64,000 nucleotides of DNA from an uncultured Gammaproteobacteria bacterium (GTDB lineage: Bacteria; Pseudomonadota; Gammaproteobacteria; JAKDMP01): contig CAWJLN010000009.1 in the NCBI GenBank assembly GCA_963843735.1, positions 104,182-168,181 of the forward strand, in the 5' to 3' direction. How positions within the stretch are numbered: position 1 is the stretch's first letter; the number at the start of each line of letters is the position of its first letter. The notes under the pieces are model-generated. The model saw nothing but the letters and a program-made list of their open reading frames with translations, did no database searches and was not told the origin of the DNA. Of the stretch, positions 1,326 to 46,231 are shown in pieces. The translations under genes and the position numbers were made by a program.

Positions 1326-2405
<1,080 letters not shown>

Positions 2406-18443: not shown

Positions 18444-18974
18444 ATGACGGGCAAACAACACCAACAACGCTTCACGGAACTGCTGCACGAGCACCGGAAA
18501 ATCATCTTCAAGGTGGCGGCGATCTACGCGCGCGGCGCGGAGGACCGTCACGATCTGGAGCAGGAGATCTGTACCCAGCTATGGCGCTCATTCGGCCGCT
18601 ACGACGAGGCACGCGGCAAGTTCTCCACCTGGATGTACCGCATCGCCCTGAACGTCGCTATCTCGCAGGCACGGCGCAAGCGCCGGTCGGAACCCGATCG
18701 CTTTGAGCCACTGGAAGACCATCACCTGGAAACCATCGGCGGCGAACCGACCGAGGAACCGGACGAACGCCTGCAAACGCTGTACGCCTTCATCGGCCGG
18801 CTCGACACACTCAATCGCGCGCTGATCCTGCTGTATCTGGAAGACAAGAGTTACGCCGAGATTGCCGAGATTCTCGGCATCAGCGAAACCAATGTGGCGA
18901 CCAAACTCAACCGCATCAAACAGAAACTGCGCGGCCGGATGACGGATCCGGACGCCGCCCCTACCGGAGCATGA
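18444..18974 (+). CDS. ECF-type RNA polymerase sigma-70 family factor
   Basis: 176 aa with region 2 (DLEQEICTQLWRSFGRYDE...FSTWMYRIALNV) and a region 4 HTH (SYAEIAEILGISETNVATKLNRIKQKLR). Confidence 0.85.
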   Translation: MTGKQHQQRFTELLHEHRKIIFKVAAIYARGAEDRHDLEQEICTQLWRSFGRYDEARGKFSTWMYRIALNVAISQARRKRRSEPDRFEPLEDHHLETIGGEPTEEPDERLQTLYAFIGRLDTLNRALILLYLEDKSYAEIAEILGISETNVATKLNRIKQKLRGRMTDPDAAPTGA

Positions 18975-19639
18975 ACATGGAACTCGATGATTTCAAACTC
19001 GCTTGGCAGACGCTGGATCGCCGCCTCGAACGGCACAATGCGCTGAATCTGCAACTGCTTCGCGACAGCCGGCTGGAGCGGCTGCGCCGCGGCCTGCGGC
19101 CGCTGAAATGGGGGCAGGCCGTCCAGATTCTGATCGGCATTGCCGGCGCGCTCCTGTTCGCGCCGTTCTGGATCGCCCATCGGCACGAGCCCGCCCTGCT
19201 CGCGTCCGGTCTCGTCATGCATCTGTACTGCCTTGCGCTGATCATTTTCGGCGCCGTAATCGAGGGACAGATCGCGCGCATCAATTACGCCGCTCCCGTG
19301 CTGGAAATACAATGCCGGCTGCTGCGGCTGCGCCGCATCTATACGGTGGGCGGCGCGCTGTTCCTGGGTCTGCCCTGGTGGTTCCTGTACGTGCCGCTGA
19401 TGATCGTGCTCGTCGCCATAGCGAGCGGCGCGAATCTGCTGCACACGGCGCCTTCGTTCGTCTACGGCGGCCTCGCCGTCGGTCTTCTGGGTCTCCTCGC
19501 GAGCGCGGGAATCTACCGCTGGTCGCATCGCCCCGAGCGCGCCCGATTGGGGCGCATGCTCGACGACAGCATGGCGGGCGGCAGCATCCGCCGCGCCCAG
19601 CGCGCGCTCGACGAACTCGCCCGCTTCGAGCAGGAATGA
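18971..19639 (+). CDS. Membrane protein co-transcribed with the ECF sigma (possible anti-sigma / signalling partner)
   Basis: Its ATG overlaps the sigma stop (ATGA). 222 aa with about four hydrophobic helices and no motif I recognise. Confidence 0.5.
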   Translation: MNMELDDFKLAWQTLDRRLERHNALNLQLLRDSRLERLRRGLRPLKWGQAVQILIGIAGALLFAPFWIAHRHEPALLASGLVMHLYCLALIIFGAVIEGQIARINYAAPVLEIQCRLLRLRRIYTVGGALFLGLPWWFLYVPLMIVLVAIASGANLLHTAPSFVYGGLAVGLLGLLASAGIYRWSHRPERARLGRMLDDSMAGGSIRRAQRALDELARFEQE

Positions 19640-27230: not shown

Positions 27231-27821
27231 ATGATGCAAAACCTCACACGCGTGTGCATGGATGCCACCTTGCGGATGTTCTCCACCCGGACAAATTACT
27301 GGGCCGAATTCGGCGTGGATATGACGCTGTCTGCCGTGCTGATCTATGAGGGCTTGCGGCTACACACCGGCGGCCTCTTGACGGTGCTTCTGGCCATTGG
27401 GCTCGGCCTGTTTGTGTTCACCTTCATTGAGTATTGTTTTCACCGCTGGCTTTTCCATATGCGGGTTCCGCTGTTCGAGCAGGGCCATCGCATGCATCAC
27501 GAGCACCCGCGCGGCTACGACTCGCTGCCGTTCTTCCTTCCGGCGACGGTGGTGTTGGGCCTGACCGGCCTGGGCGTGCTGATCATGCCCACCGGCTTCG
27601 TTTTTTTGATGACGGGTGCCATGACGTTCGGTTACGTCTCCTATGGTCTGAGTCACCACATCATCCATCACGCCCGTTTCAGGCAACCGCTGCTCATGCG
27701 CTGGGCGGCCGCCCATCACATTCACCACCATCATTCCGACTGCAACTTCGGCGTCACCACGCCGTTGTGGGACATCCTGCTGCGCACGCGCTATGCGCGG
27801 CGGCATCCCGGAAGGGCATAA
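27231..27821 (+). CDS. Fatty acid hydroxylase / sterol desaturase-family membrane di-iron enzyme
   Basis: His boxes HRWLFH, HRMHHEH, HHIIHH and HHIHHHH within a four-helix membrane protein. Confidence 0.7.
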   Translation: MMQNLTRVCMDATLRMFSTRTNYWAEFGVDMTLSAVLIYEGLRLHTGGLLTVLLAIGLGLFVFTFIEYCFHRWLFHMRVPLFEQGHRMHHEHPRGYDSLPFFLPATVVLGLTGLGVLIMPTGFVFLMTGAMTFGYVSYGLSHHIIHHARFRQPLLMRWAAAHHIHHHHSDCNFGVTTPLWDILLRTRYARRHPGRA

Positions 27822-27857: not shown

Positions 27858-28802
27858 TCAATAGACTTCGAGGAACATCCGCGGGCCGGGGCGTACGTGA
27901 CGATGGAATTCCTCGCTCGTGTACTCCAGGGGTCTCTTGCCATCGGGCGGGTGGCGCAGCGTGATGTAGCTGTCGAGTCCCGCCTTCAGCAGTTCGCGAT
28001 AGATCGCATTCTCCATGTTCTTGATTCCACACACGTAGATCAACGTGTTCGGCTGGGCGAGCGTTTCGCGCAGTTCTTCGTCCTCGCCGATCTCGTGATG
28101 CACGTAGCGCTTGAAACCGTCCATGCGCCGATCTTCGCGCGACACCACGGAGCGATAGCGGAACCCCGGGAGTTCCCGCGCCGGACCGGTGAATAAATCG
28201 TGATAGAGATAGTCGGTGCGATAGGGCACGCCCACGATCAGGTGGATGCGCGAACTTTGCACGCCCGCCGCCAGCAGATCGAGCACCATCGCGCGGAACG
28301 GCGCGATCCCGGTGCCGGTGGCGAAGAAGACGTAGTTGTGCCGATCGGGTTCGACGGGCAGCAGAAAACGTTTGCCCGCGGGGCCGGTCATTTCGACTTC
28401 GTCACCGATCTGGAGATCGCAGAGGAAATTCGAGCAGACGCCGAGATACAGGCGATGCGTCGGTCCGTGTTCTTCCAGCACACGCTTGACCAGCGTCGAG
28501 GCAAGCCGTCCTTCGCCCTTTTCGCCGCGCGAGGGCGAACTTACCGAGTAGAGCCTGAGTTTGTGCGGCTTGCCGTCGGCGTCGGTGCCGGGCGGAACAA
28601 TGCCAAAGCTCTGGCCGGCAAGCAGCCGCCCTTCGAGCGGCGTACCGCCGACATCGAAGGTGACGTGACGCACGAAGTTGGGGCTAGCCTCCGCCGTGAC
28701 GATCTGCGATTCCGCCAACGGTACCCTGACCGGCGCGTTTGCGCGGCACAGATTGACCGCCACCTCCGGCATTACCGGCGCCGCATCCACCATACTGTCC
28801 AA
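27858..28802 (-). CDS. Ferredoxin-NADP(+) reductase (plant-type FNR fold)
   Basis: RLYSVSS (FAD RxYS motif), GTGIAPFRAM (NADP GTGxAP motif), C-terminal ...FLEVY. Confidence 0.8.
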   Translation of the reverse strand: MDSMVDAAPVMPEVAVNLCRANAPVRVPLAESQIVTAEASPNFVRHVTFDVGGTPLEGRLLAGQSFGIVPPGTDADGKPHKLRLYSVSSPSRGEKGEGRLASTLVKRVLEEHGPTHRLYLGVCSNFLCDLQIGDEVEMTGPAGKRFLLPVEPDRHNYVFFATGTGIAPFRAMVLDLLAAGVQSSRIHLIVGVPYRTDYLYHDLFTGPARELPGFRYRSVVSREDRRMDGFKRYVHHEIGEDEELRETLAQPNTLIYVCGIKNMENAIYRELLKAGLDSYITLRHPPDGKRPLEYTSEEFHRHVRPGPRMFLEVY

Positions 28803-28877
28803 AATCGCCTCTCCCGTGAGGACTGCAAATCAGCGATACAGGATAACGGAATGGTCCGTATGCAGGCGCGACGCAAC

Positions 28878-29831
28878 TCAGTTCAGGGCGCCGCCGCAGG
28901 AACTGCCCTGCCCGGCAGTGCAGCCGTAGCAGTGGCCGGAAACGGCAATGGGACGCCCGGCGAGGTCCGCGTCCAGGAGTTCGGCAAGGTGCGTGCGCCG
29001 CCCGCCGAGCGGCATGTCGAGCATCTGGTTGAAGTCGCAGTCGTACACGTAGCCGCGCCAGTCCACGCTGATGAGCGAGCGGCACATCACGCGCTCCATG
29101 TTTTCGTTGCGATGCGCGCCGCGCAGCGTCGTCATGTATTCCTCGAAGCGCCCCTTGGAGACGAGCCAGCTTCCGAAGCGGCCGATCGGCAGGTTTGCAA
29201 GCACGAAAAGCCGGTTGAAAGTAATGCCGAAGTGTTCGTCGAGATAGCGCCGGTAGTCTTCTTCGAGCGGCCCCTGCGCCGGAGGCAGCACCGGGTCCTG
29301 CGGGTTGTAAACGAGATCGAGCACGAGTCCGCTGCCTTCCACACCGTAGCCGAGCGCATTGAGTCTTTGCAGCACGCGGATGCTTCCGCCGTACACGCCG
29401 CTGCCGCGCTGACGGTCCACGTTGTGTTCGAGATAACAGGGCAGCGAGGCGACGATTTCCACCCGCTCGCGCGCGAGAAACTCACCGAGATCCTCGTAGC
29501 CGGGCTCCTCCAGGATGGTGAGGTTGCAGCGATCCATCACCCGCTTGCCCAGCGCGCGCGCTTCCTGCACCAGCCAGCGAAAGTTCGCATTCATCTCCGG
29601 CGCGCCGCCGGTGAGGTCCAGCGTTTCGATCTCGGGACGTTTGAGAAATGCGAGCACCGTCTCGGCGGTTTCCCGATCCATCTGCTCCTTGCGGTGCGGA
29701 CTCGCGGCGACATGGCAATGCAGACAGGCGAGATTGCACAGATACCCGAGGTTCACCTGGAGCGTATCGGGGCGCGCGCGCGTAAGCGCGGGGAAAGGCG
29801 TGCCGGCGAGGCGCGGGCGAACGTCATGCAT
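28878..29831 (-). CDS. ArsS-family radical SAM / Cys-rich-domain protein
   Basis: CNLACLHC (CxxxCxxC) near the N-terminus, plus the characteristic C-terminal Cys-rich tail VSGHCYGCTAGQGSSCGGALN of the arsenosugar-synthase (ArsS, DUF3641-containing) family. Confidence 0.8.
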   Translation of the reverse strand: MHDVRPRLAGTPFPALTRARPDTLQVNLGYLCNLACLHCHVAASPHRKEQMDRETAETVLAFLKRPEIETLDLTGGAPEMNANFRWLVQEARALGKRVMDRCNLTILEEPGYEDLGEFLARERVEIVASLPCYLEHNVDRQRGSGVYGGSIRVLQRLNALGYGVEGSGLVLDLVYNPQDPVLPPAQGPLEEDYRRYLDEHFGITFNRLFVLANLPIGRFGSWLVSKGRFEEYMTTLRGAHRNENMERVMCRSLISVDWRGYVYDCDFNQMLDMPLGGRRTHLAELLDADLAGRPIAVSGHCYGCTAGQGSSCGGALN

Positions 29832-29840
29832 GATCGAGTT

Positions 29841-31250
29841 TTACTCCTTGCCCGCCGGGCCGCGCAGACGAAACAGAAATTGGATGAGGCGCTTGCGGCT
29901 TGGCGTAAGCGCTGTTTTCAGGCGTTGGTCGGCGGCGAAGCGCAGTCCCTGCGCGCGCGTCGGGTAGGCATGAATCAGCCCCGAGAGACTGGAAAGTTTG
30001 CGTTTCGCGGCGATCGCGAGCGCGGCCTCGTGAATCAGTTCGCCCGCCGCTGCGCCGACAACGGTCGCGCCGAGCAAACGCCCACGCGGGCTCGCGACAA
30101 GTTTCACGAAACCCGCGGTTTCACCCTCGATGATCGCGCGATCCACGTCGGCAAACTCGGCGCGCCAAATCTGGTGGCGCAGACCCTGTTCCCGCGCCGC
30201 ACTTTCGCTCAACCCCGCTTCGGCAAGTTCGGGATCGGTATAGACCACCGCCGGCACCAGTGGGCTCTTGAAACGCGCGGGCAAATGAAACAGCGCGTTC
30301 TGCAGCACCACCCGCGCCTGATACTCGGCAAGATGCGTGAAGGCGGCGCCGGCCGCATCGCCCGCCGCGTAGATATGCTTTTGACTCGTGCGCAGCCGCG
30401 AATCGAGTACGAGCCGTCCCTTTTCGAGCGTGACGCCGGCGGCTTCGAGATTCAGATCGTCGAAGCTCGGGCGTCTTCCGGCAGCGACCAAGAAATGCGA
30501 ACCTTCGGCGCGGCCGCAGGTGCCATCCTCGCGCCGCCAGGCTAGCCACAATGCCCCCTCCGCACCGCCGGCCTGCTCGACACGCACGCCACTGAGAATC
30601 TCCACGCCGTCGCCCGCAAGTGCATCGCGCACCACGGCTGCGGCCTCGACGTCGGAACGCGGCAGGATTTCGGGCGCCATCTCCACGATCGTCACCCGGC
30701 TACCAAGCCGCCGAAAGGCCTGTGCAAGCTCCACGCCGATCGGCCCGCCGCCGAGCACGAGCAGCGCCGGCACCGGTTCGGCCAGCCCGAATATGTTTTC
30801 GTTGGTAAGCAGCGGCAGATCGTTCAGACCGGGAACCGGCGGAACGGCGGGACGCGAGCCGGTGGCGATCAGGAAGCGGCGCGACGACAGATTCCGCCCG
30901 TTCACTTCCACCGTGTGCGCAGCGCGGAAGCGCGCGCGCCCCACGATGACATCGACACCGAGCGAAGTCATGCGCTCGACGCTGTCGTGCGGCGCAATGG
31001 CGGCGATCGTATCGCGTACCTTTGCAAGCACGGCGGGCAAATCAGGCGGCGCCGATGAAACGGCGGCAAGCCGCGCGGCATGCAGCAGGGCCTTCGACGG
31101 TACGCAGCCGGTGTTCAGGCATTCGCCGCCCATGCGTCCGGACTCGATCAAGGCCACGCGCGCGCCGAGTTGCGCCGCGCCCGCCGCCGCGCTCAATCCC
31201 GCGGCGCCCGCCCCGATCACGACAAGATCGTATTCACCGTTGTGGCTCAA
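29841..31250 (-). CDS. Class I pyridine nucleotide-disulfide oxidoreductase (mercuric/dihydrolipoamide reductase-like)
   Basis: YDLVVIGAGAAGLSAA (FAD), redox-active GGECLNTGCVPSK, LLVLGGGPIGVELA (NAD), IYAAGD. The likely TTG start at 31250 is preceded by GGAGGA and overlaps the anti-sigma stop (TTGA). The 611-aa track ORF is an upstream over-extension. Confidence 0.8.
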   Translation of the reverse strand: MSHNGEYDLVVIGAGAAGLSAAAGAAQLGARVALIESGRMGGECLNTGCVPSKALLHAARLAAVSSAPPDLPAVLAKVRDTIAAIAPHDSVERMTSLGVDVIVGRARFRAAHTVEVNGRNLSSRRFLIATGSRPAVPPVPGLNDLPLLTNENIFGLAEPVPALLVLGGGPIGVELAQAFRRLGSRVTIVEMAPEILPRSDVEAAAVVRDALAGDGVEILSGVRVEQAGGAEGALWLAWRREDGTCGRAEGSHFLVAAGRRPSFDDLNLEAAGVTLEKGRLVLDSRLRTSQKHIYAAGDAAGAAFTHLAEYQARVVLQNALFHLPARFKSPLVPAVVYTDPELAEAGLSESAAREQGLRHQIWRAEFADVDRAIIEGETAGFVKLVASPRGRLLGATVVGAAAGELIHEAALAIAAKRKLSSLSGLIHAYPTRAQGLRFAADQRLKTALTPSRKRLIQFLFRLRGPAGKE

Positions 31251-31507
31251 GCCCGTCCTCCGCCGCCGGCCCGCGCCACACGCAAGCGCTCGACGATGCG
31301 TTCGCGTACCGCCGCATCGAGTCCTGCCGGAAGTTCCCCGCGGGCTTCGTTGTGAAGGCGCTCGTGCAGCCAGCGAAGTTGTGCCGCGTAGCGCCGGCAA
31401 GCGCCGCACATCAAAACGTGAAAGCGCAGCGCCCAGCCGCGGCGCAGGCCGAGCCGATGCTGCAATCGTTTGGAAATAAGCAGAGCCGCCTCTTCGCAGT
31501 TGATCAT
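31247..31507 (-). CDS. Small soluble zinc-finger (ZAS, HxxxCxxC) anti-sigma factor
   Basis: MINCEEAALLISKRL...RFHVLMCGACRRY contains H-x3-C-x2-C. There is no TM helix. Its ATG overlaps the sigma stop (ATGA). Confidence 0.65.
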   Translation of the reverse strand: MINCEEAALLISKRLQHRLGLRRGWALRFHVLMCGACRRYAAQLRWLHERLHNEARGELPAGLDAAVRERIVERLRVARAGGGGRA

Positions 31508-32142
31508 GCCGCCTCCTTCCGTTTCGCTCTCTCGCGACCCGTGTTCTTGCCGAACCAATGACGCTCCAGGCAGCCGCGCAGGCCCAGACGCGCACGGTGC
31601 AATCGCACCCAGACGTTCGTCGGGCTGATGCCGAGAACCTTACAGACTTCGTCCGTTTCCAATCCGTCCAGCTCAATCAGCCGGAAGGTCGTCTCGAGCG
31701 TGTCGGGCAACTTAGCAAGGCAATCCGCGAGGGTCGCCCAGAACTCGCTCTTTTCGGCATCTTCGTCGGGCCGCGCCCAGCGTTGCGGCGCGACCCGCCA
31801 GCGGCCGGAAGCATCGAAACTTTCCGCGGCTAAGGCATCCACCTGTTCGTCGGATTCGAGCGAAATCTCGCGTCCGCGCACGCGCAACCGATCTATTACC
31901 TTGTGCTTGAGAATGCCGAACAGCCACGCGCGTTCGCCGGACTCGCCGTGGTAACGTGCCTGCGCACCGAGTGCGGCGAGAAAGGTGTCCTGCACCGCGT
32001 CCTCGGCCTCCGCGCGAACACGCAGACGGGAAAACGCGAAGCCGAACAAGGCATCGCCATACGCCTCTACCCAGCGGGCAACGTCGAGCGTCTCGCCGCC
32101 GCCCGCGGATTCCCGGGACACCCCTCCGTCCGTTTGCCCCAT
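31504..32142 (-). CDS. ECF-type RNA polymerase sigma factor
   Basis: Region 2 (AEDAVQDTFLAAL...ERAWLFGILKHKVIDRLR) and region 4 (ETDEVCKVLGISPTNVWVRLHRARLGLR). Confidence 0.85.
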   Translation of the reverse strand: MGQTDGGVSRESAGGGETLDVARWVEAYGDALFGFAFSRLRVRAEAEDAVQDTFLAALGAQARYHGESGERAWLFGILKHKVIDRLRVRGREISLESDEQVDALAAESFDASGRWRVAPQRWARPDEDAEKSEFWATLADCLAKLPDTLETTFRLIELDGLETDEVCKVLGISPTNVWVRLHRARLGLRGCLERHWFGKNTGRERAKRKEAA

Positions 32143-32326
32143 CCCGGTCCCATCTGAAATCCAGTGATCATCATAGTGCAGCTAGTGCGGCGTGCCCGCA
32201 GCCGTACGTCTTCCCGCCTTCCCGGCCGCCGATCGCGGGGCCGACCCCGGTGTAAGGATCGCCTTCTTTCTTCGACTTCCCCCTGTGGAGAAGACTCCCA
32301 CGCAATTCACCAACGAGGAGTAAATC

Positions 32327-33352
32327 ATGTCGAGACACAGCGTAATTTCCGTATTGGCGTGCGCGGCCCTGGGCGTGCTGACGCTCGGATCGGCCCGGGC
32401 ACAAGACCAGAACATGCAGCAGAACAAGATGCAGGCGATGCATCAAAAGCAGATGCAAATGATGCAGCAATTCGAGGCCATGGGGCCCTGGCGGGGCTAC
32501 CTGGAGGCGCACGACGGCGTACGCAATCCGATGCCGTTGCTCGGCGGACCGATCAAAATCAGCGTCATGCAGGATGGCGGCGGCGTTTTCGTCGCTTTGC
32601 CGGCACACCGCAACCTGGATCCCACCGTTTTCGGCACCCCTGATCATCCGCGTGCCTTCGGCGGTTTTCCGATCGTGGAAGGCGTGCCCTATCCGCTGCG
32701 CGGCATGGAGAACGGCCGATACACAAATTTAATGAAGCTCTCGCCCTTCGGCGACAAATTCATGGTGCTTCCCGACGGACATCTGAGCCTCGAAGCCATG
32801 GACGTCACGGCGACGGATGCCGCAACGACCAAGGACTCCGTCAAGCTCGATGCGACCTGGAAAGACAAGGCGGGCAACAGCTACGAGGTGCGATGCTGCA
32901 AGATGATGGCGGCGCACGACGCGGACTACCCGACCTTCGGCGGCGTAGCAACCAACGTCATTCTGCACGGATCGAGCCGCATCGGCACGCCGCTCATGCC
33001 CACCGAATTTACGTTCGTGGACTTCTGGGGCATGGGCGAGGTACTCAAGAACGGCAAGGTGCTCCAGGCGCCACGGTTGGTGCACGGCATGCTCACCGAG
33101 TACGTGCGCACAGCAGGCTACAAGCTCGGCTTCGACAAGGACGTGACGCCGACCAAGGTGCAGTTCCATCTGATACTGCCGCCGGTGATGCCGGAACTCG
33201 CCAAAGGGACCTTCAAGCCCGATCCGGTGGATACCGGCTTCAAGCTGCCGAACGGCATGACGCTGCCCTTCTGGCACGTGATGTTCGAGAACCTGACCGT
33301 GACCGCCTCGCGTACCGAGCCGAGCCAGCAGTTCTGGCCGCCCAAGGGATGA
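32327..33352 (+). CDS. Secreted protein of unknown family with a Met/Gln-rich N-terminal tract
   Basis: GAGGAG lies 7 nt before the ATG. Signal peptide ...GSARA, followed by QDQNMQQNKMQAMHQKQMQMMQQFEAMG. The remaining roughly 290 aa contain no motif I recognise. Confidence 0.6.
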   Translation: MSRHSVISVLACAALGVLTLGSARAQDQNMQQNKMQAMHQKQMQMMQQFEAMGPWRGYLEAHDGVRNPMPLLGGPIKISVMQDGGGVFVALPAHRNLDPTVFGTPDHPRAFGGFPIVEGVPYPLRGMENGRYTNLMKLSPFGDKFMVLPDGHLSLEAMDVTATDAATTKDSVKLDATWKDKAGNSYEVRCCKMMAAHDADYPTFGGVATNVILHGSSRIGTPLMPTEFTFVDFWGMGEVLKNGKVLQAPRLVHGMLTEYVRTAGYKLGFDKDVTPTKVQFHLILPPVMPELAKGTFKPDPVDTGFKLPNGMTLPFWHVMFENLTVTASRTEPSQQFWPPKG

Positions 33353-33359
33353 GGAGACG

Positions 33360-33758
33360 ATGATGAAGCTGCCAAAAAGACGCAGGCTGGCAGCGGCGAT
33401 TCTCGGTTCGGCGGGCGTAATGCTCGGCGCATCGGGATACACCGCCACCGCCACGGTCGGGATGACCAATACGCTCAGATTCACGCCGCCAACGCTCACG
33501 GTTCACGTCGGCGATACCGTGGTGTGGAAAAACGACTCGGCACTCGCGCACACGGTCACCGACGTGCCCAAACTCGCGAGCACGGCGAGCGATGCAAGCT
33601 TGCCGATGGGAGCCAAGCCCTTCAATTCGGGCTACCTCAATCCCGGCAAGAGTTACGTGCATACGTTTACCGTACCCGGCACCTACCGTTACTTCTGCAT
33701 TCCGCATGAGGCGACCGGCATGGTGGGCACAGTAATCGTCGAACCTGCCGGGCATTGA
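33360..33758 (+). CDS. Type-1 copper cupredoxin (plastocyanin/pseudoazurin-like)
   Basis: Signal peptide with KRRRL. Copper ligands are present: His in ALAHTV and the C-x2-H-x4-M motif in YFCIPHEATGM. It starts 7 nt after the previous stop. Confidence 0.8.
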   Translation: MMKLPKRRRLAAAILGSAGVMLGASGYTATATVGMTNTLRFTPPTLTVHVGDTVVWKNDSALAHTVTDVPKLASTASDASLPMGAKPFNSGYLNPGKSYVHTFTVPGTYRYFCIPHEATGMVGTVIVEPAGH

Positions 33759-35226: not shown

Positions 35227-35419
35227 AGTTGCCTCTGGCGGTCGTTACTGGATGTCCAGACTTGCACGAATTCCATGGTCGTCTTGAAATTCAGCGAAAG
35301 AATGTACTCTTGAGAATCGACGACGGCAAACAGGATCCTGAATAATCCGTACGCCGCCGGGATCAGGTCGGCAAAACGCGCGAATCCTTACAGTGAAGTC
35401 GGCAGCCTGTCGGTCACGA

Positions 35420-37210
35420 TCAAAAGGCCGGAGCGGATTGCCTGGCGTCTTTTGTCTGCCGTTCCCGGTCTTCGGCCTGCTGCAAATCCCACAGGCGCGC
35501 GTAAAGACCGCGCTCTCTCAGCAACTCGCGGTGCGTGCCGCGCTCCACGATGCGGCCCGCGTCCAGCACCATGATCTCGTCGGCGTCCACGATGGTCGAG
35601 AGCCTGTGGGCGATCACGAGACTGGTGCGCCGCTCGGCAAGCGTGCGCATCGCGGCGAGGATCGCTTGTTCGGCGCCGGAGTCGAGGCTCGAAGTCGCCT
35701 CGTCGAAAACCAGGATGGGCGGATTCTTGAGGATCGCACGCGCGATCGCGACGCGCTGTTTCTCGCCGCCGGAAAGCTTCAGTCCGCGCTCGCCGACGAG
35801 CGTGTCGTATTTCTGCGGCAAGGACTCGATGAAGGATTTGAGATTCGCAAACTCCGCCGCGCGTGCGATCTCGTTCTCGTTCGCATCCGGGCGGCCATAG
35901 GCGATGTTGTAGCCAATCGTGTCGTTGAACAGCACCGTGTCCTGCGGCACAATGCCGATCAAGCGGCGGAGGCTCTCGCGGGTGACGTCGCGGATGTCTT
36001 CGTCGTCCACGAGTATGCGCCCTTCGTTTGCATCGTAGAAGCGAAAGAGCAGACGCGCGAGCGTGGACTTGCCCGCGCCGCTCGGGCCGACCACCGCGAC
36101 CTTCGCACCTGCGGGCACCGTGAAGCTCACGCCGCGCAGGATTTCGCGATCCGGCCCGTAGCCAAAACGCAGGTTCTCAAAGCGCAACTCGCCACGCGGC
36201 GCCACAAGTACCGAGGCATCAGGTTTGTCTGCGATCTGCGTGTTGCGGTCGAGCAGCGCGAACATCCGTTCCATGTCCACAAACGCCTGCTTCATCTGGC
36301 GATACACGAAACCGAGGAAATTAAGCGGCAGGAACAGCTGCACCATATATGCGTTGACCATGACGAAATCGCCCACCGTCATGCGGCCGTGCACCACTTC
36401 GTAGCCCGCGAGCAGCATCATGGCGGTAACGCCTAGCGCGATGATGAGCGCCTGACCGGCATTGAGCGTCGAAAGCGAATACTGGGTTCGCAGCGCCTCC
36501 TTTTCCCAGGCCGCCATCTGCATGTCGTAACGCCCGGCCTCGTATTCCTCGTTGGTGAAATACTTCACCGTCTCGTAATTGATGAGGCTGTCTATCGCGC
36601 GCGTATTGGCCTTCGAGTCCAACTCGTTCATGCGCCGCACGTGGCGCACGCGCCACTCGGTGACGGCGATCGAAAACGCGATAAAGAGGATCACCGCAAC
36701 CAGGATGATCACCGCGAACCACACGGAAAAGTTCCACAGGAGGATGCCGGTAACGAGCCCGATTTCGAGCAAAGTCGGCAGAATATTGAACAGCATGAAA
36801 CTCAGCACGAAGTTGATGCCGCGCGTACCGCGTTCGATGTCGCGCGAAAGCCCGCCGGTCTGGCGCTCCAGATGAAAGGCGAGGTCGAGATCGTGCAGAT
36901 GCCGGAACACCTTGAGCGCGATGCGACGCACCGCACGAAGCGCCGCGAACTCGAACACCAGATCGCGCAATTCGCCGAATAGCGTCGCGGCAAAGCGCAG
37001 TGCGCCGTAGGCGATCAGCAACGCGAGCGGCAGTACGAGCGCTGCGTGCTGTACGTTGAGCGCATCCACGATGTGCTTCAGGGCCATCGGGATCGCGACC
37101 GTAGCGAGCTTGGCCACGACCAAAAAGCCGAGCGCGACGAACGCCCGCCCGCGGAACTCCCACAGGAAGGGAAGCAGATTGCGCCAGGTAGTGCTGCTTT
37201 TCCGAGTCAT
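35420..37210 (-). CDS. ABCB half-transporter (fused permease + ATPase), Atm1/heavy-metal-exporter-like
   Basis: N-terminal six-helix domain, Walker A GPSGAGKST, signature LSGGEKQR, Walker B ILVFDEATS. The likely start is MTRKSSTTW at 37210. Confidence 0.85.
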   Translation of the reverse strand: MTRKSSTTWRNLLPFLWEFRGRAFVALGFLVVAKLATVAIPMALKHIVDALNVQHAALVLPLALLIAYGALRFAATLFGELRDLVFEFAALRAVRRIALKVFRHLHDLDLAFHLERQTGGLSRDIERGTRGINFVLSFMLFNILPTLLEIGLVTGILLWNFSVWFAVIILVAVILFIAFSIAVTEWRVRHVRRMNELDSKANTRAIDSLINYETVKYFTNEEYEAGRYDMQMAAWEKEALRTQYSLSTLNAGQALIIALGVTAMMLLAGYEVVHGRMTVGDFVMVNAYMVQLFLPLNFLGFVYRQMKQAFVDMERMFALLDRNTQIADKPDASVLVAPRGELRFENLRFGYGPDREILRGVSFTVPAGAKVAVVGPSGAGKSTLARLLFRFYDANEGRILVDDEDIRDVTRESLRRLIGIVPQDTVLFNDTIGYNIAYGRPDANENEIARAAEFANLKSFIESLPQKYDTLVGERGLKLSGGEKQRVAIARAILKNPPILVFDEATSSLDSGAEQAILAAMRTLAERRTSLVIAHRLSTIVDADEIMVLDAGRIVERGTHRELLRERGLYARLWDLQQAEDRERQTKDARQSAPAF

Positions 37211-37361
37211 TGTTCCATCTTCCCTGCAATTACTCCGCATGACAGCACATGGGCATCTCTATCGAAAATTTTTCCGTCGTTTCCCGGTGCGTCCGCGCGA
37301 GTATAACGAACAGATTAGGGAGCCACTGATTTATTCCGTCATGCTGACGAAAGTCGGCTTC

Positions 37362-37394
37362 CAGAAAAAAAGAATCCCGGCCCATGGCCGGGAT
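37362..37394 (-). terminator. Rho-independent terminator downstream of the GST gene
   Basis: On the minus strand, a 9-bp perfect stem ATCCCGGCC/GGCCGGGAT with a 3-nt loop (37374-37394) is followed by TC then T7 (37371-37365). It lies about 45 nt after the GST stop. Confidence 0.7.
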
Positions 37395-37438
37395 ACAATG
37401 TCTTACTGGGCCCGGCTTTCGCCGGGGTGACGATATGT

Positions 37439-38050
37439 TCAGTTGAGTCCTTCTTCCTGCAGCACCTTCTTGACTGCCGCATCGGCGTGCATGCGCTGGA
37501 AGAAGCGTTCGAGGTTATCCAGACCGGAAAGGTCAACCATCATCCCCTTCGCCCAGCGCAGAATCACGAACAGGTACGGATCGGCGATCGAGCGCGCGCC
37601 GGCGATCCAGTCGCGACCTTCGAGTTGTTTGTCGGCCTGTTCCAGACGCTGGCGAATCGTTTTCTTCGCTTGTTCCTTGGTCTTCTCGATGACTGTCTTG
37701 TCGCCGAGATAGGCGGTCGCACCAAACAGTGGCCCGAAGGCGGGATGCACATCGGAATTGACGATGCCCAGCCAGCGGTTCACCTCGGCGCGGCCCTTCG
37801 GGGTACCGTCGCCGGCGAGTTTCGCTTCGGGAAATGCGTCGGCCAGATAATTAAGGATGGCCGAGTTCTGCGTCAGTATCCAGCCGTCCTTCTCGAAGGC
37901 CGGCACCGCGCCGGCGGGATTGATCTTGAGGTAGGCGTCTTTCTTCAACTCGTCATGGCTGAGCTTTTGCGTGTCGTAGGGTTGTCCTATCCATTCCAGC
38001 GTGATGTGATCGGCGAGCGAACAGGCGCCCGGAGAGTAATACAGTTTCAT
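37439..38050 (-). CDS. Glutathione S-transferase (beta-class-like)
   Basis: MKLYYSPGACSLADHITLEW N-terminus, 203 aa, GST N- and C-domain pattern. Confidence 0.85.
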   Translation of the reverse strand: MKLYYSPGACSLADHITLEWIGQPYDTQKLSHDELKKDAYLKINPAGAVPAFEKDGWILTQNSAILNYLADAFPEAKLAGDGTPKGRAEVNRWLGIVNSDVHPAFGPLFGATAYLGDKTVIEKTKEQAKKTIRQRLEQADKQLEGRDWIAGARSIADPYLFVILRWAKGMMVDLSGLDNLERFFQRMHADAAVKKVLQEEGLN

Positions 38051-38109
38051 AACAATGTCTCCTTGTGTTTACGTGAATACATGAGATTCGGCAAAGTCCG
38101 GCGAACCGC

Positions 38110-39208
38110 TCAGGCGGCCTCGGCGCGCTGCATGGGATAGTCCACGTAGCCGCGCGCGCCTCCCTGGTAGAAGGTCGCCGGGTCCGGCGAGGCGAGCGGT
38201 GCGGCGAGGCGAAAACGCAGCGGCAGTATCCGGGTTGGCGATGAACGGCTTGCCATAGGCGACGAGGTCCGCCTCGCCGCGGGCGATCGCCGCATTGCCG
38301 CGTTCGCGGTCGTAGCCGTTGTTGGTAATCAGCGTGCCGCCATACACCGTGCGGTAATGCGCGGTTACATCCGCAACCACGTTCGGAATGTCCAGGACTC
38401 CATCCGCCTCGCGAAGATGCAGATATGCAAGACGGTAGCCGCCGAGCACGCCGATGACGAAGTCGTAAAGCGCCGCGGTGTCGCTGTCGGCAGGAATGTT
38501 GCCGACGTTCGCGGGCGAGAGCCGCACGCCGACCCGCTCGCGACCGATCGCGTTCGAAACCCCTTCCACGATCTCGAACAGGAAGCGCGCGCGGTTGGCG
38601 ATGCTGCCACCATATCTGTCGCTGCGGCGATTGGTCGAATCGCGCAGGAACTGCTCGACCAGATAGCCGTTCGCGCCGTGAATTTCCACGCCGTCGAATC
38701 CGGCTTCGATTGCGTTTTTCGCACCCTGCACGAAGTCTGAAACCACCGCACGCACCTCACGGGTCGAGAGCGCGCGCGGCGCGACGGTTTCCTTCTGCCC
38801 CGAGGGCGTGAACACTTTGACGTTCGGGTTGACGGCCGAAGGCGCCACGGGCAATTCGCCGTCATGAAAATCCGGATGCGAGATGCGCCCCACGTGCCAG
38901 AGCTGAAGAAAGATATGACCGTCGCGCGCATGCACGGCATCTGCGACCTGCTTCCAGCCGCGGATTTGCGCCGCGGAATGGATGCCGGGCGTGTTGACAT
39001 AACCCACACCCTGCGGCGAAACCTGACTTCCCTCGGTGATGATGAGTCCGGCATCGGCACGCTGCGCATAGTATTCGGCGTGCAGCGCCGTCGGCACGCG
39101 CTCGGGATTATCCGCACGGGCGCGCGTCATCGGCGCCATCACCACGCGGTTCGGCAAGGTGTACGGTCCCAACTTTACCGGGGTCAGCAACGGCTGTCGT
39201 TCGTCCAT
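38110..39208 (-). CDS. Old Yellow Enzyme family NADH:flavin oxidoreductase (N-ethylmaleimide reductase-like), one frame disruption near 38227
   Basis: LPNRVVMAPMTR, HGANGYLVEQFL, SNRRSDRYGGS. The C-terminus PLRFRLAAPLASPDPATFYQGGARGYVDYP continues in ORF 38110-38295. The ATG at 39208 is preceded by AAGGAG. Confidence 0.8.
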
Positions 39209-39304
39209 CAGTGCTCTCCTTTCTTCATTCAACGAATCTGTAGCGTATTGAAATATCGGCGAATTTCGATATTAACGGTCGAAAAAGCCGCGCCACGGCA
39301 GCGC

Positions 39305-39649
39305 TCAAATATCCTGCTGCAGAAACACGCCCACGCGACGCAGCGTCTCTTCGTTGCGCACGTAGAAAGTCCACTGCCCGCAGCGCTTCGCCTCGATCAA
39401 TCCGGCCTGCTGGAGCTGGGCCAGGTACTGCGAAGCCGTGGACTGCGACAGGCCGAGTTTCTTCTGAATCTCGCCCACGCAGACCCGATCGCCCCGGCAC
39501 TCGCCATTCGGCGTCGGGCCGAAATTCTTGTCCGGCTCCCGCATCAGGCTCAGAATCTTGAGCCGCGACTCGTTCGCCAGTGCCTTGAAGACAGTCACTT
39601 CGTCCATGCGCATCAATATATCACGAAATCCCGATATGTCAATACGCAT
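39305..39649 (-). CDS. ArsR/SmtB-family metalloregulator-type transcriptional repressor
   Basis: FKALANESRLKILSLM...VGEIQKKLGLSQSTASQYLAQLQQAGLIEAKRCGQWTFY (wHTH). The true start may be the internal ATG at 39613 or 39607. Confidence 0.8.
   Translation of the reverse strand: MRIDISGFRDILMRMDEVTVFKALANESRLKILSLMREPDKNFGPTPNGECRGDRVCVGEIQKKLGLSQSTASQYLAQLQQAGLIEAKRCGQWTFYVRNEETLRRVGVFLQQDI
39606..39649. promoter_or_regulatory. Imperfect 17-nt inverted repeat (possible ArsR operator)
   Basis: atgcgcatcaatatatc (39606-39622) and gatatgtcaatacgcat (39633-39649) match in 13 of 17 positions as an inverted repeat, separated by 10 nt. It covers the first 15 codons of the longest arsR ORF. Confidence 0.3.
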
Positions 39650-39734: not shown

Positions 39735-40320
39735 GAACACTCCACCGGCTAAAGCCGGTGGCTTCGGATTACGGCTGAAAGCCGGATCGGTCGGCCATGC
39801 GGCCGACTACACAACCTGAAAGTCATCGTCAGGCTCCGGCGGCTTCTGCTCCTCGATGTAACGGTGCCACACCTCGTCGGTCACGTTCCCGCTCGTGCAT
39901 ACCCAGTAGCCTCGCGCCCACAGGTGCTGTCCCCAATACCGCTTCCTCAGCCGCGCAAACTCCGTCAGAAGCTTGTGCGAACTCTTGCCCTTCATGTACT
40001 GCACCGCCCGCGATACCGATAGATACGGCGGTATCCCTATCAGCATGTGCACATGATCCCGATTGATCGCCCCCGCATAGATGCGCATCTCCTTCGCCCG
40101 CGCTATCTCGCGCAGCAACTCCCGGCAGCGCTCTCCTACTTCCCCGCCCAGTACCTGATATCGGTACTTCGTCGTCCACACCAGGTGGTACTTGCAGTCC
40201 CACACCGTGTGGCTCCCGCGCTTATAATCCTCCATCTCCTCAGCATAACCTAGTCAACCTGTCCGCCGGCTAAAGCCGGGGGGTTTACTGATCCCCTATC
40301 GGGGACTCTAAAAGCCGATG
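39735..40320 (-). mobile_element. IS200/IS605-family insertion sequence (tnpA only); boundaries approximate
   Basis: A Y1 HUH transposase gene flanked by subterminal hairpins. These are CCACCGGC-TAAA-GCCGGTGG (39742-39761), GTCGGCC-ATGC-GGCCGAC (39790-39807), CCGGC-TAAA-GCCGG (40266-40279) and TCCCC-TATC-GGGGA (about 40291-40304). Confidence 0.6.
39807..40235 (-). CDS. tnpA: IS200/IS605 family transposase TnpA (Y1 HUH)
   Basis: 142 aa: VWDCKYHLVWTTKYRYQVL, HUH motif in DHVHMLI, YMKGKSSHKL, catalytic-Tyr region RGYWVCTSGNVTDEVWHRYIEEQ. Confidence 0.9.
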   Translation of the reverse strand: MEDYKRGSHTVWDCKYHLVWTTKYRYQVLGGEVGERCRELLREIARAKEMRIYAGAINRDHVHMLIGIPPYLSVSRAVQYMKGKSSHKLLTEFARLRKRYWGQHLWARGYWVCTSGNVTDEVWHRYIEEQKPPEPDDDFQVV

Positions 40321-40373
40321 CGGAATATCCCTCAAAGCGTCCTTATGCCATTTTTCATCTATAATCGCCCAGG

Positions 40374-41606
40374 GTGGATGTGGAATTAACATTGAAATCA
40401 GCGGTAAAGCTCAAACTTCCATGGCGACAAGCTGACACATTTATATCAGCCGTTCATTCGAGAACGAGAGTGAGCGGTTTGACGCACGACTTTTACAAGT
40501 ACCCAGCCCGCTTTTCTCCCGAATTCGCGAGAGCGACAATTACGTCGCTCTCGCGTCCCGGCGACATCATTGCCGACCCATTCATGGGCGGAGGCACATC
40601 GCTAGTTGAAGCGCGGGCTACCGGGCGTCTGTCAGTTGGCTGTGACATTAGTAGCCTTGCTACTTTTGTAGCCCGGGCAAAAACACAAGTCTTATCTCCT
40701 GACGAACTTCATAATGTAAGCACATGGCTGCAGTGCCTTCCCGATAACATTAACCTCCGGATTCACTCCTCCAATGAGAATATTTGGGCAGAACGTGGTT
40801 ACTTCAAACATCTTAACGGTCCATCTACTTGGCCAATCCGCAAATTTATAGAGTTGGCACTACCGCGTCTCTACGAGCTTCCAGGATACAAACAACGCGT
40901 ATTCGCTAGATGCGTAATGTTACGCACTGCGCAATGGGCGATAGATGGCAGGAAGACCATTCCCAACATTGCAACATTCCGACACCAGTTTCGGGAAATC
41001 GCGTCCCGCATGACACAAGGCAGCCAAGATTTTAGCGCTATGTCCTTAGCGGCCGATAAGCTCTCGCAGACATCCCGACGCTCCCGGATACTATGCATCA
41101 ACTCCCCAGCATCTAGGTTGCCTGCGTTCTACTCCGCCCGCCACAGCAATGCACCGAAGTTGGTATTGACATCCCCCCCGTATCCCGGGGTTCATATGCT
41201 TTACCACCGCTGGCAGCTATTCGGTGGCAAGGAATCTCCTGCGCCATTCTGGATCGCTAACCGGTTAGATGGTGCCGGCGAATCGCATTACCTAATGCAT
41301 GCACGCAAAGATGACAAAACGAGATATTTTGGCGAACTTGAGGCCGCGCTAAAGCCCTTAGTAGTCCTCGCGAAACGAGATACAACATTCGTCCAACTCG
41401 TGGCGTTTTCCGATCCACAAAAGCAACTCCCCAAATATCTCGAAACAATGGAGCGCTGCGGATTGCGGGAACACATCCTTTCTGAACACATTGATTCTCA
41501 CGATGGAAGACTATGGAGAACAGTTCCTAATAGGCGTTGGCACGCTCAGTCGAAGGGTGCACTTGAGTCGTCACGTGAAGTAGTCCTGCTCCACAGACCC
41601 TCCTAG
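40374..41606 (+). CDS. Putative DNA (N6-adenine or N4-cytosine) methyltransferase
   Basis: AdoMet motif I IIADPFMGGGTSLVEA (aa ~65-80) and catalytic motif IV LVLTSPPYPG (aa ~265-275), in an AT-richer region. Confidence 0.75.
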   Translation: MDVELTLKSAVKLKLPWRQADTFISAVHSRTRVSGLTHDFYKYPARFSPEFARATITSLSRPGDIIADPFMGGGTSLVEARATGRLSVGCDISSLATFVARAKTQVLSPDELHNVSTWLQCLPDNINLRIHSSNENIWAERGYFKHLNGPSTWPIRKFIELALPRLYELPGYKQRVFARCVMLRTAQWAIDGRKTIPNIATFRHQFREIASRMTQGSQDFSAMSLAADKLSQTSRRSRILCINSPASRLPAFYSARHSNAPKLVLTSPPYPGVHMLYHRWQLFGGKESPAPFWIANRLDGAGESHYLMHARKDDKTRYFGELEAALKPLVVLAKRDTTFVQLVAFSDPQKQLPKYLETMERCGLREHILSEHIDSHDGRLWRTVPNRRWHAQSKGALESSREVVLLHRPS

Positions 41607-43831: not shown

Positions 43832-44113
43832 ATGAGGAGGTTCTACGTGAAGAAGTCTCGATTCAGCGACAGTCAGATCATGAGCATTTTGAAGCAGGCC
43901 GAGGCGGGTACGCCGGTGGCCGAGCTATGCCGGGAGCACGGCATGAGCGGTGCGCTGTTCTACCGCTGGCGGGCGAAGTACGGGGGGATGGACGCCTCGC
44001 TGATGCGCCGTCTCAGGGAGTTGGAGGAGGAGAACCGGCGGCTGAAGAAGATGTACGCCGAGGAGCGGCTCAAGGCGGAGATTGTGAGCGAGGCGCTCAC
44101 AAAAAAATGGTGA
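43832..44113 (+). CDS. IS3-family transposase OrfA (HTH)
   Basis: [48 protein letters not shown] plus a leucine-zipper-like tail. Confidence 0.85.
44101..44107 (+). other. Programmed -1 ribosomal frameshift heptamer A_AAA_AAA of the IS3 element
   Basis: In the orfA frame the sequence reads ac[A AAA AAA] TGG TGA. After a -1 slip the orfB frame reads [11 protein letters not shown].... Confidence 0.7.
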
Positions 44114-44934: not shown

Positions 44935-45362
44935 ACCCTACTTCTGACCACCGCTAAATATGGGGGGATTACCATGGCGCGCGCCTGCTGAGTGCGGTGA
45001 GTTTCCGGCCAGTCTATAAGCATGCCCGGTTCGTCGAAGAATGCTTTTACAGCTTCTCGAATTCCACGCGGAGCATTTTCTGACTCGGGTTGAATCCCTT
45101 TCTTCAGGCATTCAGCCATTAGCGTTGAATCTACACTGTTCACGATTTTTTCAATGAGAGCAGCTTCAGAGAAGTTCTGCTGATTCCCAACCGTGGCAAA
45201 ATTTCCTTCCTTGTCCCCATAAAGTCGCCAAAGTTGATTATCGTCCCAGAGCTCGCGAGCCTTAAGAATTTGGATAACTTCATGCTCCGACTCAGCGTGA
45301 AGCAAATCCAGAGCCAAGACTTTAACTTCTTGATCGTTCATGATTTTCTCCGTCCTCGGAAT

Positions 45363-46004: not shown

Positions 46005-46231
46005 ATTGTAATTATATGTCTTTGTCCATGGAAGTAAGTAGTGCCGTTGTTTTACTTCTTTAACTGCCAAAACTGCCAAAGTGACTTGTCCAAATCGCTC
46101 AGCAATGCCCCATGGCGGTGCAAGTGTCGAAAACTCCGGCTTTGGCGTCTACCGCCGCTAGGCGGACAAGGCCATGCGGCTATTGTTTTTACGTGCATTT
46201 TCATATACATTAAGCGAGTTAAAGGCAATAT

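Follow-up and report, generated by a model that had tools for sequence, protein, structure and literature searches.

An ECF sigma/anti-sigma pair and a promoter-like motif linked to an ArsS-type radical SAM operon in an uncultured gammaproteobacterium

Five co-directional genes on the minus strand of a 64,000-nucleotide stretch of DNA from an uncultured gammaproteobacterium (the window; contig CAWJLN010000009.1) span positions 27858-32142 and encode, in order of transcription, an extracytoplasmic function (ECF) sigma factor, a small zinc-binding anti-sigma (ZAS) protein, a class-I pyridine-nucleotide disulfide oxidoreductase (PNDR), an ArsS-family radical S-adenosylmethionine (SAM) enzyme and a plant-type ferredoxin-NADP+ reductase (FNR). 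We propose, and give an even chance, that they form a sigma/anti-sigma-controlled stress operon around the ArsS-type enzyme, as a trimmed, lineage-specific variant of a widespread ArsS cluster. From its sequence, the operon appears to be switched on by its own sigma/anti-sigma pair, via a promoter-like motif located inside the sigma gene.

Operon layout and gene identities

An earlier reading of the same DNA, made from the letters only (the sequence-only reading), had described five tightly packed same-strand genes, and direct reading confirmed both packing and coordinates (Table 1): the sigma stop and the anti-sigma start overlap in ATGA, the anti-sigma stop and the PNDR start in TTGA, and the remaining spacers measure 9 nt (PNDR-ArsS) and 75 nt (ArsS-FNR). 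A sequence scan of the operon strand found no terminator-like sites between the five genes. The gene identities assigned at that time all proved correct, as judged by hidden Markov model (HMM) matches and by the motifs HVLMCGAC (anti-sigma), CLNTGC (PNDR), CNLACLHC and the tail of ArsS. Gene calling based on GC content at third codon positions (GC3) favoured a 781-aa open reading frame (ORF) on the plus strand (28200-30545), antisense to ArsS and PNDR, over these two genes, wrongly; homology evidence decides otherwise, and the ORF, which lacks homology support, was rejected as a high-GC artefact.

Table 1. Coordinates of the operon, of motif copies and of further features in the window
Feature	Position	Strand	Remarks
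ECF (group IV) sigma factor, TIGR02943-like	31504-32142	-	212 aa
Small soluble anti-sigma with ZAS ligands	31247-31507	-	86 aa from ATG
PNDR, class-I pyridine-nucleotide disulfide oxidoreductase	29841-31253	-	470 aa, TTG start
ArsS-family radical SAM enzyme (TIGR04167, DUF3641)	28878-29831	-	317 aa
Plant-type ferredoxin-NADP+ reductase (FNR)	27858-28802	-	314 aa, TTG start, Shine-Dalgarno
Conserved block CTGCACTATGATGA, -10-like TATGAT	32168-32181	-	~30 nt upstream of sigma ATG
Motif copy 1	31619-31644	-	inside sigma ORF (codons C167-T175), 112 nt upstream of anti-sigma ATG
Motif copy 2	32251-32276	+	divergent intergenic region, 50 nt upstream of 341-aa gene
Motif copy 3	35367-35392	-	ABC-MFS intergenic region, 140 nt upstream of MFS start
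Secreted 341-aa protein, Met/Gln-rich N-terminus	32327-33352	+	highly conserved family; candidate regulon member
Plastocyanin/azurin-family cupredoxin	33360-33758	+	conserved two-gene pair with 341-aa protein
Major facilitator superfamily (MFS) transporter, 462 aa	33838-35226	-	candidate regulon member
FA_hydroxylase-family membrane di-iron protein	27231-27821	+	convergent with FNR; conserved in L087; possible associate
MsbA/ATM1-like ATP-binding cassette (ABC) exporter	35420-37240	-
GstA-like glutathione S-transferase	37439-38050	-
N-ethylmaleimide-reductase-like old yellow enzyme	38069-39232	-
ArsR/SmtB-family metalloregulator	39305-39649	-

Conservation of the gene neighbourhood

The closest relatives, with ArsS 82-95% identical to that of the window, came from metagenome-assembled genomes (MAGs) of uncultured Gammaproteobacteria. 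L087 (ArsS 95%) carries an ArsM-like methyltransferase, a PHO4 transporter and a low-molecular-weight-phosphatase (LMWP)-type ArsC-like gene upstream, the ArsM-like and ArsC-like genes lying two to three genes upstream of sigma, followed by the same five genes and the convergent FA_hydroxylase. In L088 (94%), sigma, anti-sigma, PNDR and ArsS are followed by two transferases in the place of FNR, which pass the TIGR04283 and TIGR04282 cut-offs. L089 (86%) has a divergent 342-aa/cupredoxin pair and then sigma, anti-sigma, PNDR and ArsS, and L001/L002 (82%) have sigma, anti-sigma, ArsS and FNR, without PNDR. As the order sigma-antisigma-PNDR-ArsS is shared by L087, L088 and L089, and sigma-antisigma-ArsS-FNR is found in L001/L002, the five-gene arrangement is not due to chance, and the neighbourhood is conserved in related genomes. 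By the same arrangements, the core of the operon is sigma-antisigma-(PNDR)-ArsS and its tail is exchangeable.

For a wider survey, 80 proteobacterial ArsS loci of 58-69% identity, from one genome per GTDB species, were annotated by seed homology and all-against-all clustering. Near ArsS were found a TIGR04283 family 2 glycosyltransferase (GT2; 53/80), TIGR04282/DUF2064 (47/80), PNDR (36/80), a ~315-aa protein without family name (19/80), sigma with a small ZAS anti-sigma (16/80), DUF3047 (13/80), an ArsM-like methyltransferase (10/80), FA_hydroxylase (7/80), DUF3750 (7/80) and FNR (0/80). The survey bore out the sigma/anti-sigma pair and PNDR as recurrent partners of ArsS.

The link between the pair and ArsS was further upheld by its occurrence in another phylum, and by a motif shared before ArsS (see below). 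In Pontiella agarivorans (Kiritimatiellota; L085), the sigma is 51% identical and accompanied by a zf-HC2 anti-sigma; in the cluster around them, an ArsR-family regulator, an ArsP_1-family permease, a thioredoxin/DsbD, a radical SAM gene that is not TIGR04167, and an ArsM-like gene precede sigma and anti-sigma, and DedA, PNDR and a TIGR04282/04283 fusion follow. Cultured bacteria that carry ArsS loci include Roseateles puraquae, Rubrivivax rivuli and Caldimonas manganoxidans.

A cluster of TIGR04167, TIGR04283 (GT2-like) and TIGR04282 (CofC-like/DUF2064) is defined in databases as 'rSAM/selenodomain' or 'arsenosugar biosynthesis', with NCBIfam naming both transferase families 'arsenosugar biosynthesis glycosyltransferase'; names beyond ArsS are curator inference. 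The window shares with this cluster the ArsS core, PNDR and the sigma/anti-sigma partners, and all of the set is present in L088, its 94%-identical relative, whereas the window itself lacks both transferases (tblastn) and has FNR instead. By gene content, the window operon is thus best read as a reduced, lineage-specific derivative of a widespread cluster of ArsS, TIGR04283 and TIGR04282, with or without DedA-PNDR and ArsM, and the earlier description of a 'self-contained' pathway was abandoned.

Sigma factor and anti-sigma factor

The sigma factor consists of regions 2 and 4 only (Pfam Sigma70_r2, 49.9 bits; Sigma70_r4_2, 44.8 bits). It passes the superfamily model TIGR02937 (82.8, cut-off 42.9) and reaches 161.1 bits against TIGR02943 (cut-off 162.2), the family under which JGI labels one homologue. 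Assignment to ECF18/19 was rejected as a poor fit, these groups having RskA-type anti-sigmas (reclassification paper). C141, C167, C191 and a C-terminal W-F were invariant in 19/19 aligned homologues, including those not linked to ArsS, so the sigma might itself be thiol- or metal-sensitive.

The anti-sigma carries HVLMCGAC and Cys4, with C4, H29, C33 and C36 as ZAS ligands, and matches the ZAS pattern (HxxxCxxC plus an upstream Cys, directly 3' of sigma), which was also seen in 25 sigma-linked homologues. It passes NF052368 (53.5, cut-off 50) and is slightly under the cut-off of Pfam zf-HC2 (20.8 vs 22.2); by eye, it has no hydrophobic stretch of transmembrane length. In the species survey, all 16/16 counted ArsS-linked sigmas are followed by a soluble protein of 62-101 aa with C-x(24-26)-H-x3-C-x2-C; left out of the 16 were L004, L023, L066 and L068, which have a sigma homologue without this anti-sigma and were judged likely unrelated. 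With RsrA-SigR and other ZAS/ECF pairs, the window pair shares a small cytoplasmic anti-sigma of this pattern, translationally coupled to sigma, and a thiol-reactive trigger is plausible for it as well. It differs from RsrA-SigR in that its sigma is TIGR02943-like, proteobacterial and equipped with three invariant Cys, in its target motif, and in the location of the candidate target promoter, which lies inside the sigma ORF instead of upstream of sigma.

To survey the sigma side, metagenomes were scanned with the sigma alignment, yielding 80 loci of 30-48% identity, many on contigs too short to judge. At least 55 of these have a small ZAS anti-sigma downstream, and 13/80 adjoin bufferin operons (BufA1/MbnB/HvfC/DoxX). 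A sigma dedicated to ArsS was rejected, as homologues of ~50% identity also occur in non-ArsS contexts. In Caulobacter, bufferins are copper-induced, SigF-controlled metallophores (PMC11626156); because homologues adjoin bufferin operons, we consider the sigma/anti-sigma module to be generic and metal(loid)-associated rather than dedicated to ArsS, on the evidence of gene context. The 'redox-triggered' control that had been proposed for the operon is accordingly one possibility only: a copper-responsive bufferin operon is the other recurrent target of the sigma family, which indicates thiophilic metal(loid) stress.

Upstream of the sigma gene, the block CTGCACTATGATGA is kept in the window, L087 and L088, as aligned together with L089, though the upstream genes differ. 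A sigma-70 consensus scan gave no promoter match in this region, and the search for an ECF promoter upstream of sigma in close relatives (by eye and alignment) returned only the -10-like TATGAT block, from which, tentatively, the sigma gene may have housekeeping transcription.

A promoter-like motif and its candidate targets

For motif discovery, bipartite words were enumerated upstream of 96 sigma genes, from which one non-GC-rich pair emerged, TGTAAGG-N15(16)-CGAC (consensus TGTAAGGAAt-N12-CGACyAAg). The orientation GGTCG-N15-CCTTACA was rejected: it is the reverse complement that leads into ArsS, the bufferin operons and the anti-sigma. The window contains three exact copies (0.02 expected from shuffles), all within 4 kb of sigma and pointing into genes (Table 1). 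Copy 1 is a candidate sigma-dependent internal promoter for antisigma-PNDR-ArsS-FNR; the divergent arrangement of copy 2 is found again in L089.

In the 80 species loci, the motif was scanned for with at most one mismatch, in forward orientation and within 300 nt upstream of ArsS. It was present in 21/80 loci, in 17 of these 21 with 31-75 nt between motif end and start codon; a further scan found it inside a co-directional upstream sigma gene in 9/80, and in either place in 29/80. As controls, the reverse orientation gave 2-3 loci and the region downstream of ArsS 4, with a background of 0.007 per 300 nt. Of the 21 copies close to ArsS, 17 lie in loci that lack an adjacent sigma/anti-sigma pair, which implies control in trans. 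At sigma-bufferin loci, the motif points at the bufferin operons.

Inside sigma genes, 56/102 have the motif at no more than one mismatch, with a bimodal mismatch distribution. The codon for Cys167 is TGT in 68/96 sigma genes, compared to 67/186 for the other two invariant Cys positions (p = 4e-8), and codon 174 ends in G in 65/75, compared to a background of 36% (p = 6e-19). This synonymous-site bias supports DNA-level selection on the motif inside sigma genes.

A similar site is GTAACC-N16-CGAA, defined by experiment for sigmaF of Caulobacter (PMC3511200), with a common architecture GTAA[CG][CG]-N15/16-CGA[AC]; that of the window is a putative promoter, enriched, oriented and consistent in position. 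SigF-NrsF of Caulobacter and the window pair also share a metal-stress theme, relatives of the window sigma adjoining bufferin operons. They differ in the anti-sigma, a soluble ZAS protein in the window and the membrane protein NrsF in Caulobacter, and in the effectors, which in the window are ArsS, PNDR and FNR.

The 341-aa protein behind copy 2 matched no Pfam or NCBIfam model, and its AlphaFold2 model (mean predicted local distance difference test score (pLDDT) 74, moderate) matched no fold in the PDB. Its family is 51-72% identical across Gammaproteobacteria, Gemmatimonadota, Bacteroidota, Calditrichota, Nitrospinota and Dadabacteria, and is followed by a plastocyanin-like cupredoxin in 4/4 contexts (window 32327-33758 (+), L089 3859-5329, L170 5001-6465, L171 5001-6447). 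In L087, an exact motif lies 37 nt upstream of a gene for a 138-aa four-helix membrane protein without family match (2186-2665, minus strand), of which a 58%-identical homologue is encoded at L153 879-1256, beside another sigma-antisigma-ArsS locus.

ArsS and its arsenic context

ArsS scores 452.9 bits against the equivalog model TIGR04167 (cut-off 300), a family for which more than 8000 clusters at 90% identity were scored, and 185 bits against DUF3641. Both CNLACLHC (CxxxCxxC) and the Cys-rich C-terminal CYGCTAGQGSSCGG, which fits CxGC...SS[C/U]GG, are invariant across 24 homologues. A PDB sequence search with ArsS gave only remote radical SAM core matches. In a neighbour-joining (NJ) tree, ArsS proteins linked to ArsM, to sigma and to transferases intermingle, with the window clade nested among those that have an ArsM link; the window ArsS is not marked as a separate subfamily, and HMM scoring likewise kept it within the family to which it had first been assigned.

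Once its cluster is primed, cyanobacterial ArsS turns dimethylarsenite (DMAs(III)) into 5'-deoxy-5'-dimethylarsinoyl-adenosine without net redox change (PMC13598754), and arsS and arsM are co-transcribed in Synechocystis (bioRxiv 10.1101/2022.09.23.509062). With ArsS of Synechocystis sp. PCC 6803, the window enzyme shares the TIGR04167 family, CxxxCxxC, the DUF3641 tail with CxGCTAGxGSSCGG and, by homology, presumably 5'-deoxyadenosyl transfer to a trivalent arsenical. Unlike there, the window has no arsM in 64 kb, and its ArsS has an ECF sigma/anti-sigma pair and then a disulfide reductase before it and FNR after it.

The sequence-only reading had noted the absence of arsM and ars resistance genes. 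This is true of the 64-kb window. As an argument that the operon is probably not about arsenic it is weakened by relatives: ArsM-like genes, all under NCBIfam cut-offs, occur in 10/80 related loci (4/16 sigma-linked loci vs 6/64 others), an ArsM-like gene lies near the orthologous operon in L087, and the tree is interspersed.

To our knowledge, arsenic biotransformation genes have been described as under ArsR-type repressors, and we know of no report of sigma/anti-sigma involvement in the cyanobacterial arsM-arsS unit. A literature search on ArsS regulation found no such role for this unit. Searches on DUF3641, TIGR04167 and TIGR04282/3 returned passing mentions or nothing relevant, and those on ArsS with an anti-sigma and ECF sigma, and on an arsenosugar gene cluster with a glycosyltransferase, gave no papers. 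That the pathway was not recognised as described is thus in line with the literature on ArsS, its cluster or its regulation, in which we found no paper on it.

Disulfide reductase and ferredoxin-NADP+ reductase

PNDR matches Pfam Pyr_redox_2 (203 bits), Pyr_redox (75 bits) and Pyr_redox_dim (92 bits) and has the redox-active CxxxxC as CLNTGC within GGECLNTGCVPSK; with FAD/NAD domains, CxxxxC and dimerisation domain it is a class-I enzyme. Its best match is the uncharacterised NF004991 subfamily, one found in ArsS clusters and often fused to DedA. Identification as MerA was rejected (TIGR02053, 376.5 vs a cut-off of 454.45), there being no NmerA domain and no C-terminal Cys pair: an N-terminal metal-binding domain is absent, and the C-terminus reads ...RLRGPAGKE. 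Dihydrolipoyl dehydrogenase and glutathione reductase were rejected likewise, as the Lpd and GR equivalog cut-offs were failed. PNDR thus shares the class-I fold, FAD and NAD(P)H domains, CxxxxC and dimerisation domain with these three enzymes, and scores under every equivalog cut-off. In the 36 ArsS loci with a homologue, it is mostly fused to a DedA/VTT membrane domain. A DedA/VTT-PNDR fusion is also encoded in L170 (3541-11032), without ArsS nearby, in a copper-type neighbourhood of a MerR regulator, DoxX, a 341-aa family protein, a cupredoxin and two Cu-oxidase-domain genes.

FNR matches NAD_binding_1 (62 bits), and has the motifs RLYSVSS and GTGIAPF and the C-terminus ...EVY with its terminal Tyr; it scores 200.9 against the PetH equivalog (cut-off 600), with the plant-type hallmark motifs present. 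The TTG start is preceded by GGGAGAGG. FNR follows ArsS only in the window, L087 and L001/L002 and is therefore confined to this lineage. No conserved elements were found in the ArsS-FNR and antisigma-ArsS spacers of the window, L087 and L001.

The sequence-only reading took PNDR and FNR as two candidate electron suppliers of a self-contained, redox-triggered pathway with a thiol/zinc-sensing anti-sigma. The tight packing and the ZAS motif speak for this proposal, as does the position of FNR after ArsS in three related contigs, with or without PNDR or FA hydroxylase, and radical SAM clusters need a one-electron donor. PNDR, however, is a two-electron CxxxxC disulfide reductase, and its fusion to membrane DedA/VTT in most other loci fits a substrate- or membrane-directed role better than Fe-S reduction; FNR is found in none of the 80 ArsS loci of the species survey, and 94%-identical L088 has two transferases instead; the motif ties the operon to other genes, and relatives carry transferases and ArsM. 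We regard the proposal as a whole as improbable. As to its electron supply, only FNR would fit the role for ArsS, if as a lineage-confined partner, and PNDR is unlikely to be electron supplier for the radical SAM cluster, being a CxxxxC class-I enzyme that is elsewhere fused to DedA/VTT and also lies beside copper genes.

FNR might stand outside the ArsS unit altogether, either serving the convergent FA_hydroxylase or being independently transcribed. FNR and FA_hydroxylase are neighbours in both the window and L087, the latter is a membrane di-iron enzyme, and di-iron hydroxylases need reductase partners; in L087, moreover, the ArsS-FNR spacer (8955-9178) is 224 nt long, vs 75 nt in the window, and holds a long inverted repeat, GCAGGTTGCCGAAAAAC...GTTTTTCAGCAACCTGC, possibly a repetitive extragenic palindromic (REP)-like insertion or a terminator. 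This option is very improbable in our view: FNR follows ArsS in L001/L002 without any FA hydroxylase, the 75-nt gap in the window has no terminator-like site, a Shine-Dalgarno sequence is present, and as convergent genes FNR and FA_hydroxylase are not co-transcribed. A different FA_hydroxylase subfamily lies directly upstream of ArsS in the 7/80 loci of the survey.

Arsenic or other soft metals

Several points weigh against the operon being an ArsS-centred arsenical unit under its own promoter. The sigma family is not ArsS-specific, ArsS/ArsM being neighbours in only ~4/80 of its metagenome loci and bufferins in 13/80. The genes arsM, arsC, acr3/arsB, TIGR04282 and TIGR04283 are absent from the 64-kb window (tblastn for the transferases), so the substrate supply of ArsS is not visible, and the ArsM-like and ArsC-like genes of L087 score under NCBIfam cut-offs. 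Two of the three window motifs lead to copper-flavoured genes or to ones without assigned function, and PNDR fusions also adjoin multicopper-oxidase genes (L170). The internal motif overlaps the conserved peptide C-K-x-L-G-I-x-x-T-N, so that the protein sequence accounts for part of its conservation. Neither a ferredoxin nor a flavodoxin gene adjoins the operon, and since ArsS turnover is redox-neutral after priming (PMC13598754), a dedicated FNR is not strictly required.

The missing ars and transferase genes in the window, the sub-cut-off genes of relatives and the copper-flavoured sigma family and motif targets make a general thiophilic-metal (copper-type) or thiol-stress regulon, unrelated to arsenic, a serious rival. 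ArsS would then act on another substrate, such as a thiol of a protein or cofactor, or a centre of selenium, antimony, tellurium or sulfur, and PNDR would be the main detoxifying reductase. The most frequent neighbours of the sigma/anti-sigma family are bufferin operons (13/80), which are copper-induced in Caulobacter (PMC11626156), the window motif precedes a Met-rich secreted protein and a cupredoxin, the DedA-PNDR fusion of L170 lies beside Cu-oxidase-domain genes, MerR and DoxX, and some TIGR04167 members are selenoproteins (PMC13188914). Against this stand the chemistry of the sole characterised family member, which forms a C-As bond, and the position of the window ArsS, far above the equivalog cut-off and nested among ArsM-linked homologues. 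ArsM-like genes are, moreover, enriched in sigma-linked loci, L087 with its 95%-identical ArsS has ArsM-like and ArsC-like genes beside the same operon, and ArsR-family regulators and an ArsP_1-family permease stand around the Pontiella cluster. On balance we consider the non-arsenic regulon unlikely, and retain the ArsS-centred stress operon as our working explanation.

Proposed mechanism and significance

Computation gave the gene identities, their packing, the recurrent partnerships and, for the motif, its enrichment, its orientation and its conservation at synonymous sites; what signal acts, where transcripts start, which substrate is used and what PNDR and FNR do, we infer. In the ArsS-centred model, the ECF sigma would be made at basal level, possibly from the TATGAT-type promoter, and be kept inactive by the cytoplasmic zinc-binding anti-sigma (C4/H29/C33/C36) until a thiol-reactive cytoplasmic signal hits the zinc/thiol site of the latter and frees sigma. 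The most likely signal would be a thiophilic metal(loid), e.g. As(III), methyl-As(III) or Cu(I), or thiol oxidation caused by these. Free sigma would fire TGTAAGG-N15-CGAC promoters: the internal one in the sigma coding sequence, for the anti-sigma (negative feedback) and PNDR, ArsS and FNR, a second for the divergent 341-aa/cupredoxin pair, and a third for the MFS transporter. ArsS, with SAM and a [4Fe-4S] cluster, would transfer a 5'-deoxyadenosyl group onto a trivalent metalloid; going by homology, it would convert dimethylarsenite to 5'-deoxy-5'-dimethylarsinoyl-adenosine. FNR could pass NADPH electrons via a ferredoxin or flavodoxin encoded elsewhere to the ArsS cluster for priming, and PNDR, with NAD(P)H, could hold the substrate or the Cys-rich ArsS tail in a reduced, thiol-bound state.

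In a broader version, which we find possible and lean against, widespread ECF sigmas would carry their own recognised promoter in the region-4 coding sequence, and the module, with its soluble zinc-thiol anti-sigma, would sense thiophilic metal(loid)s in the cytoplasm in general and control ArsS clusters and bufferin operons, with the window variant yielding an adenosyl-metalloid. If true, sigma would be constitutive and the anti-sigma and downstream effectors made only upon induction, a promoter embedded in the sigma gene decoupling sigma synthesis from anti-sigma/effector synthesis. Organo-arsenical biosynthesis in many Proteobacteria would be controlled in this way instead of, or besides, by ArsR, and the end product of the FNR-containing, transferase-less variant would be an adenosyl-metalloid rather than an arsenosugar.

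With a conserved sigma/anti-sigma pair and a definable promoter before ArsS in about one third of the sampled species, organo-arsenical synthesis would have a second mode of regulation, one that has gone unreported. Motif, sigma and anti-sigma would provide a handle for switching on and studying the very large, almost uncharacterised TIGR04167 family, and the enzymes of the variable tail (FNR vs two transferases) and the conserved disulfide reductase are candidates for accessory roles in metalloid chemistry. The ArsS family and the transferase cluster are already known at database level. The sigma/anti-sigma partnership, the motif before ArsS, the promoter inside the sigma gene and the swap of FNR for transferases appear unreported; no papers describing the ArsS cluster or its regulation were found, in a search that did not extend to the motif or to sigma-embedded promoters.

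Other features of the window

Next after the MFS gene that bears the motif, a series of genes of detoxification type occupies 35420-39649 on the minus strand (Table 1). It is followed by a low-GC stretch (39807-46400; 51-55% vs ~64% elsewhere) with large ORFs without assigned function, which begins at an IS200-type Y1 transposase (39807-40235; Pfam) and includes an ORF (43927-44934) that reads, by eye on its translation only, as an IS3-type transposase; the stretch has the look of a mobile island that was inserted. Scanning the window against Rfam and for tRNAs gave no matches, which ruled out an rRNA operon at 40-46 kb. A second, unrelated ECF sigma (176 aa) is encoded on the plus strand at 18444-19639, together with a following 222-aa membrane protein without family match, and the two are probably another sigma/anti-sigma pair. 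On the minus strand at 49517-52946, two adjacent ORFs of 688 and 378 aa, both tricorn-protease-like by eye, may represent a frameshifted or split gene.

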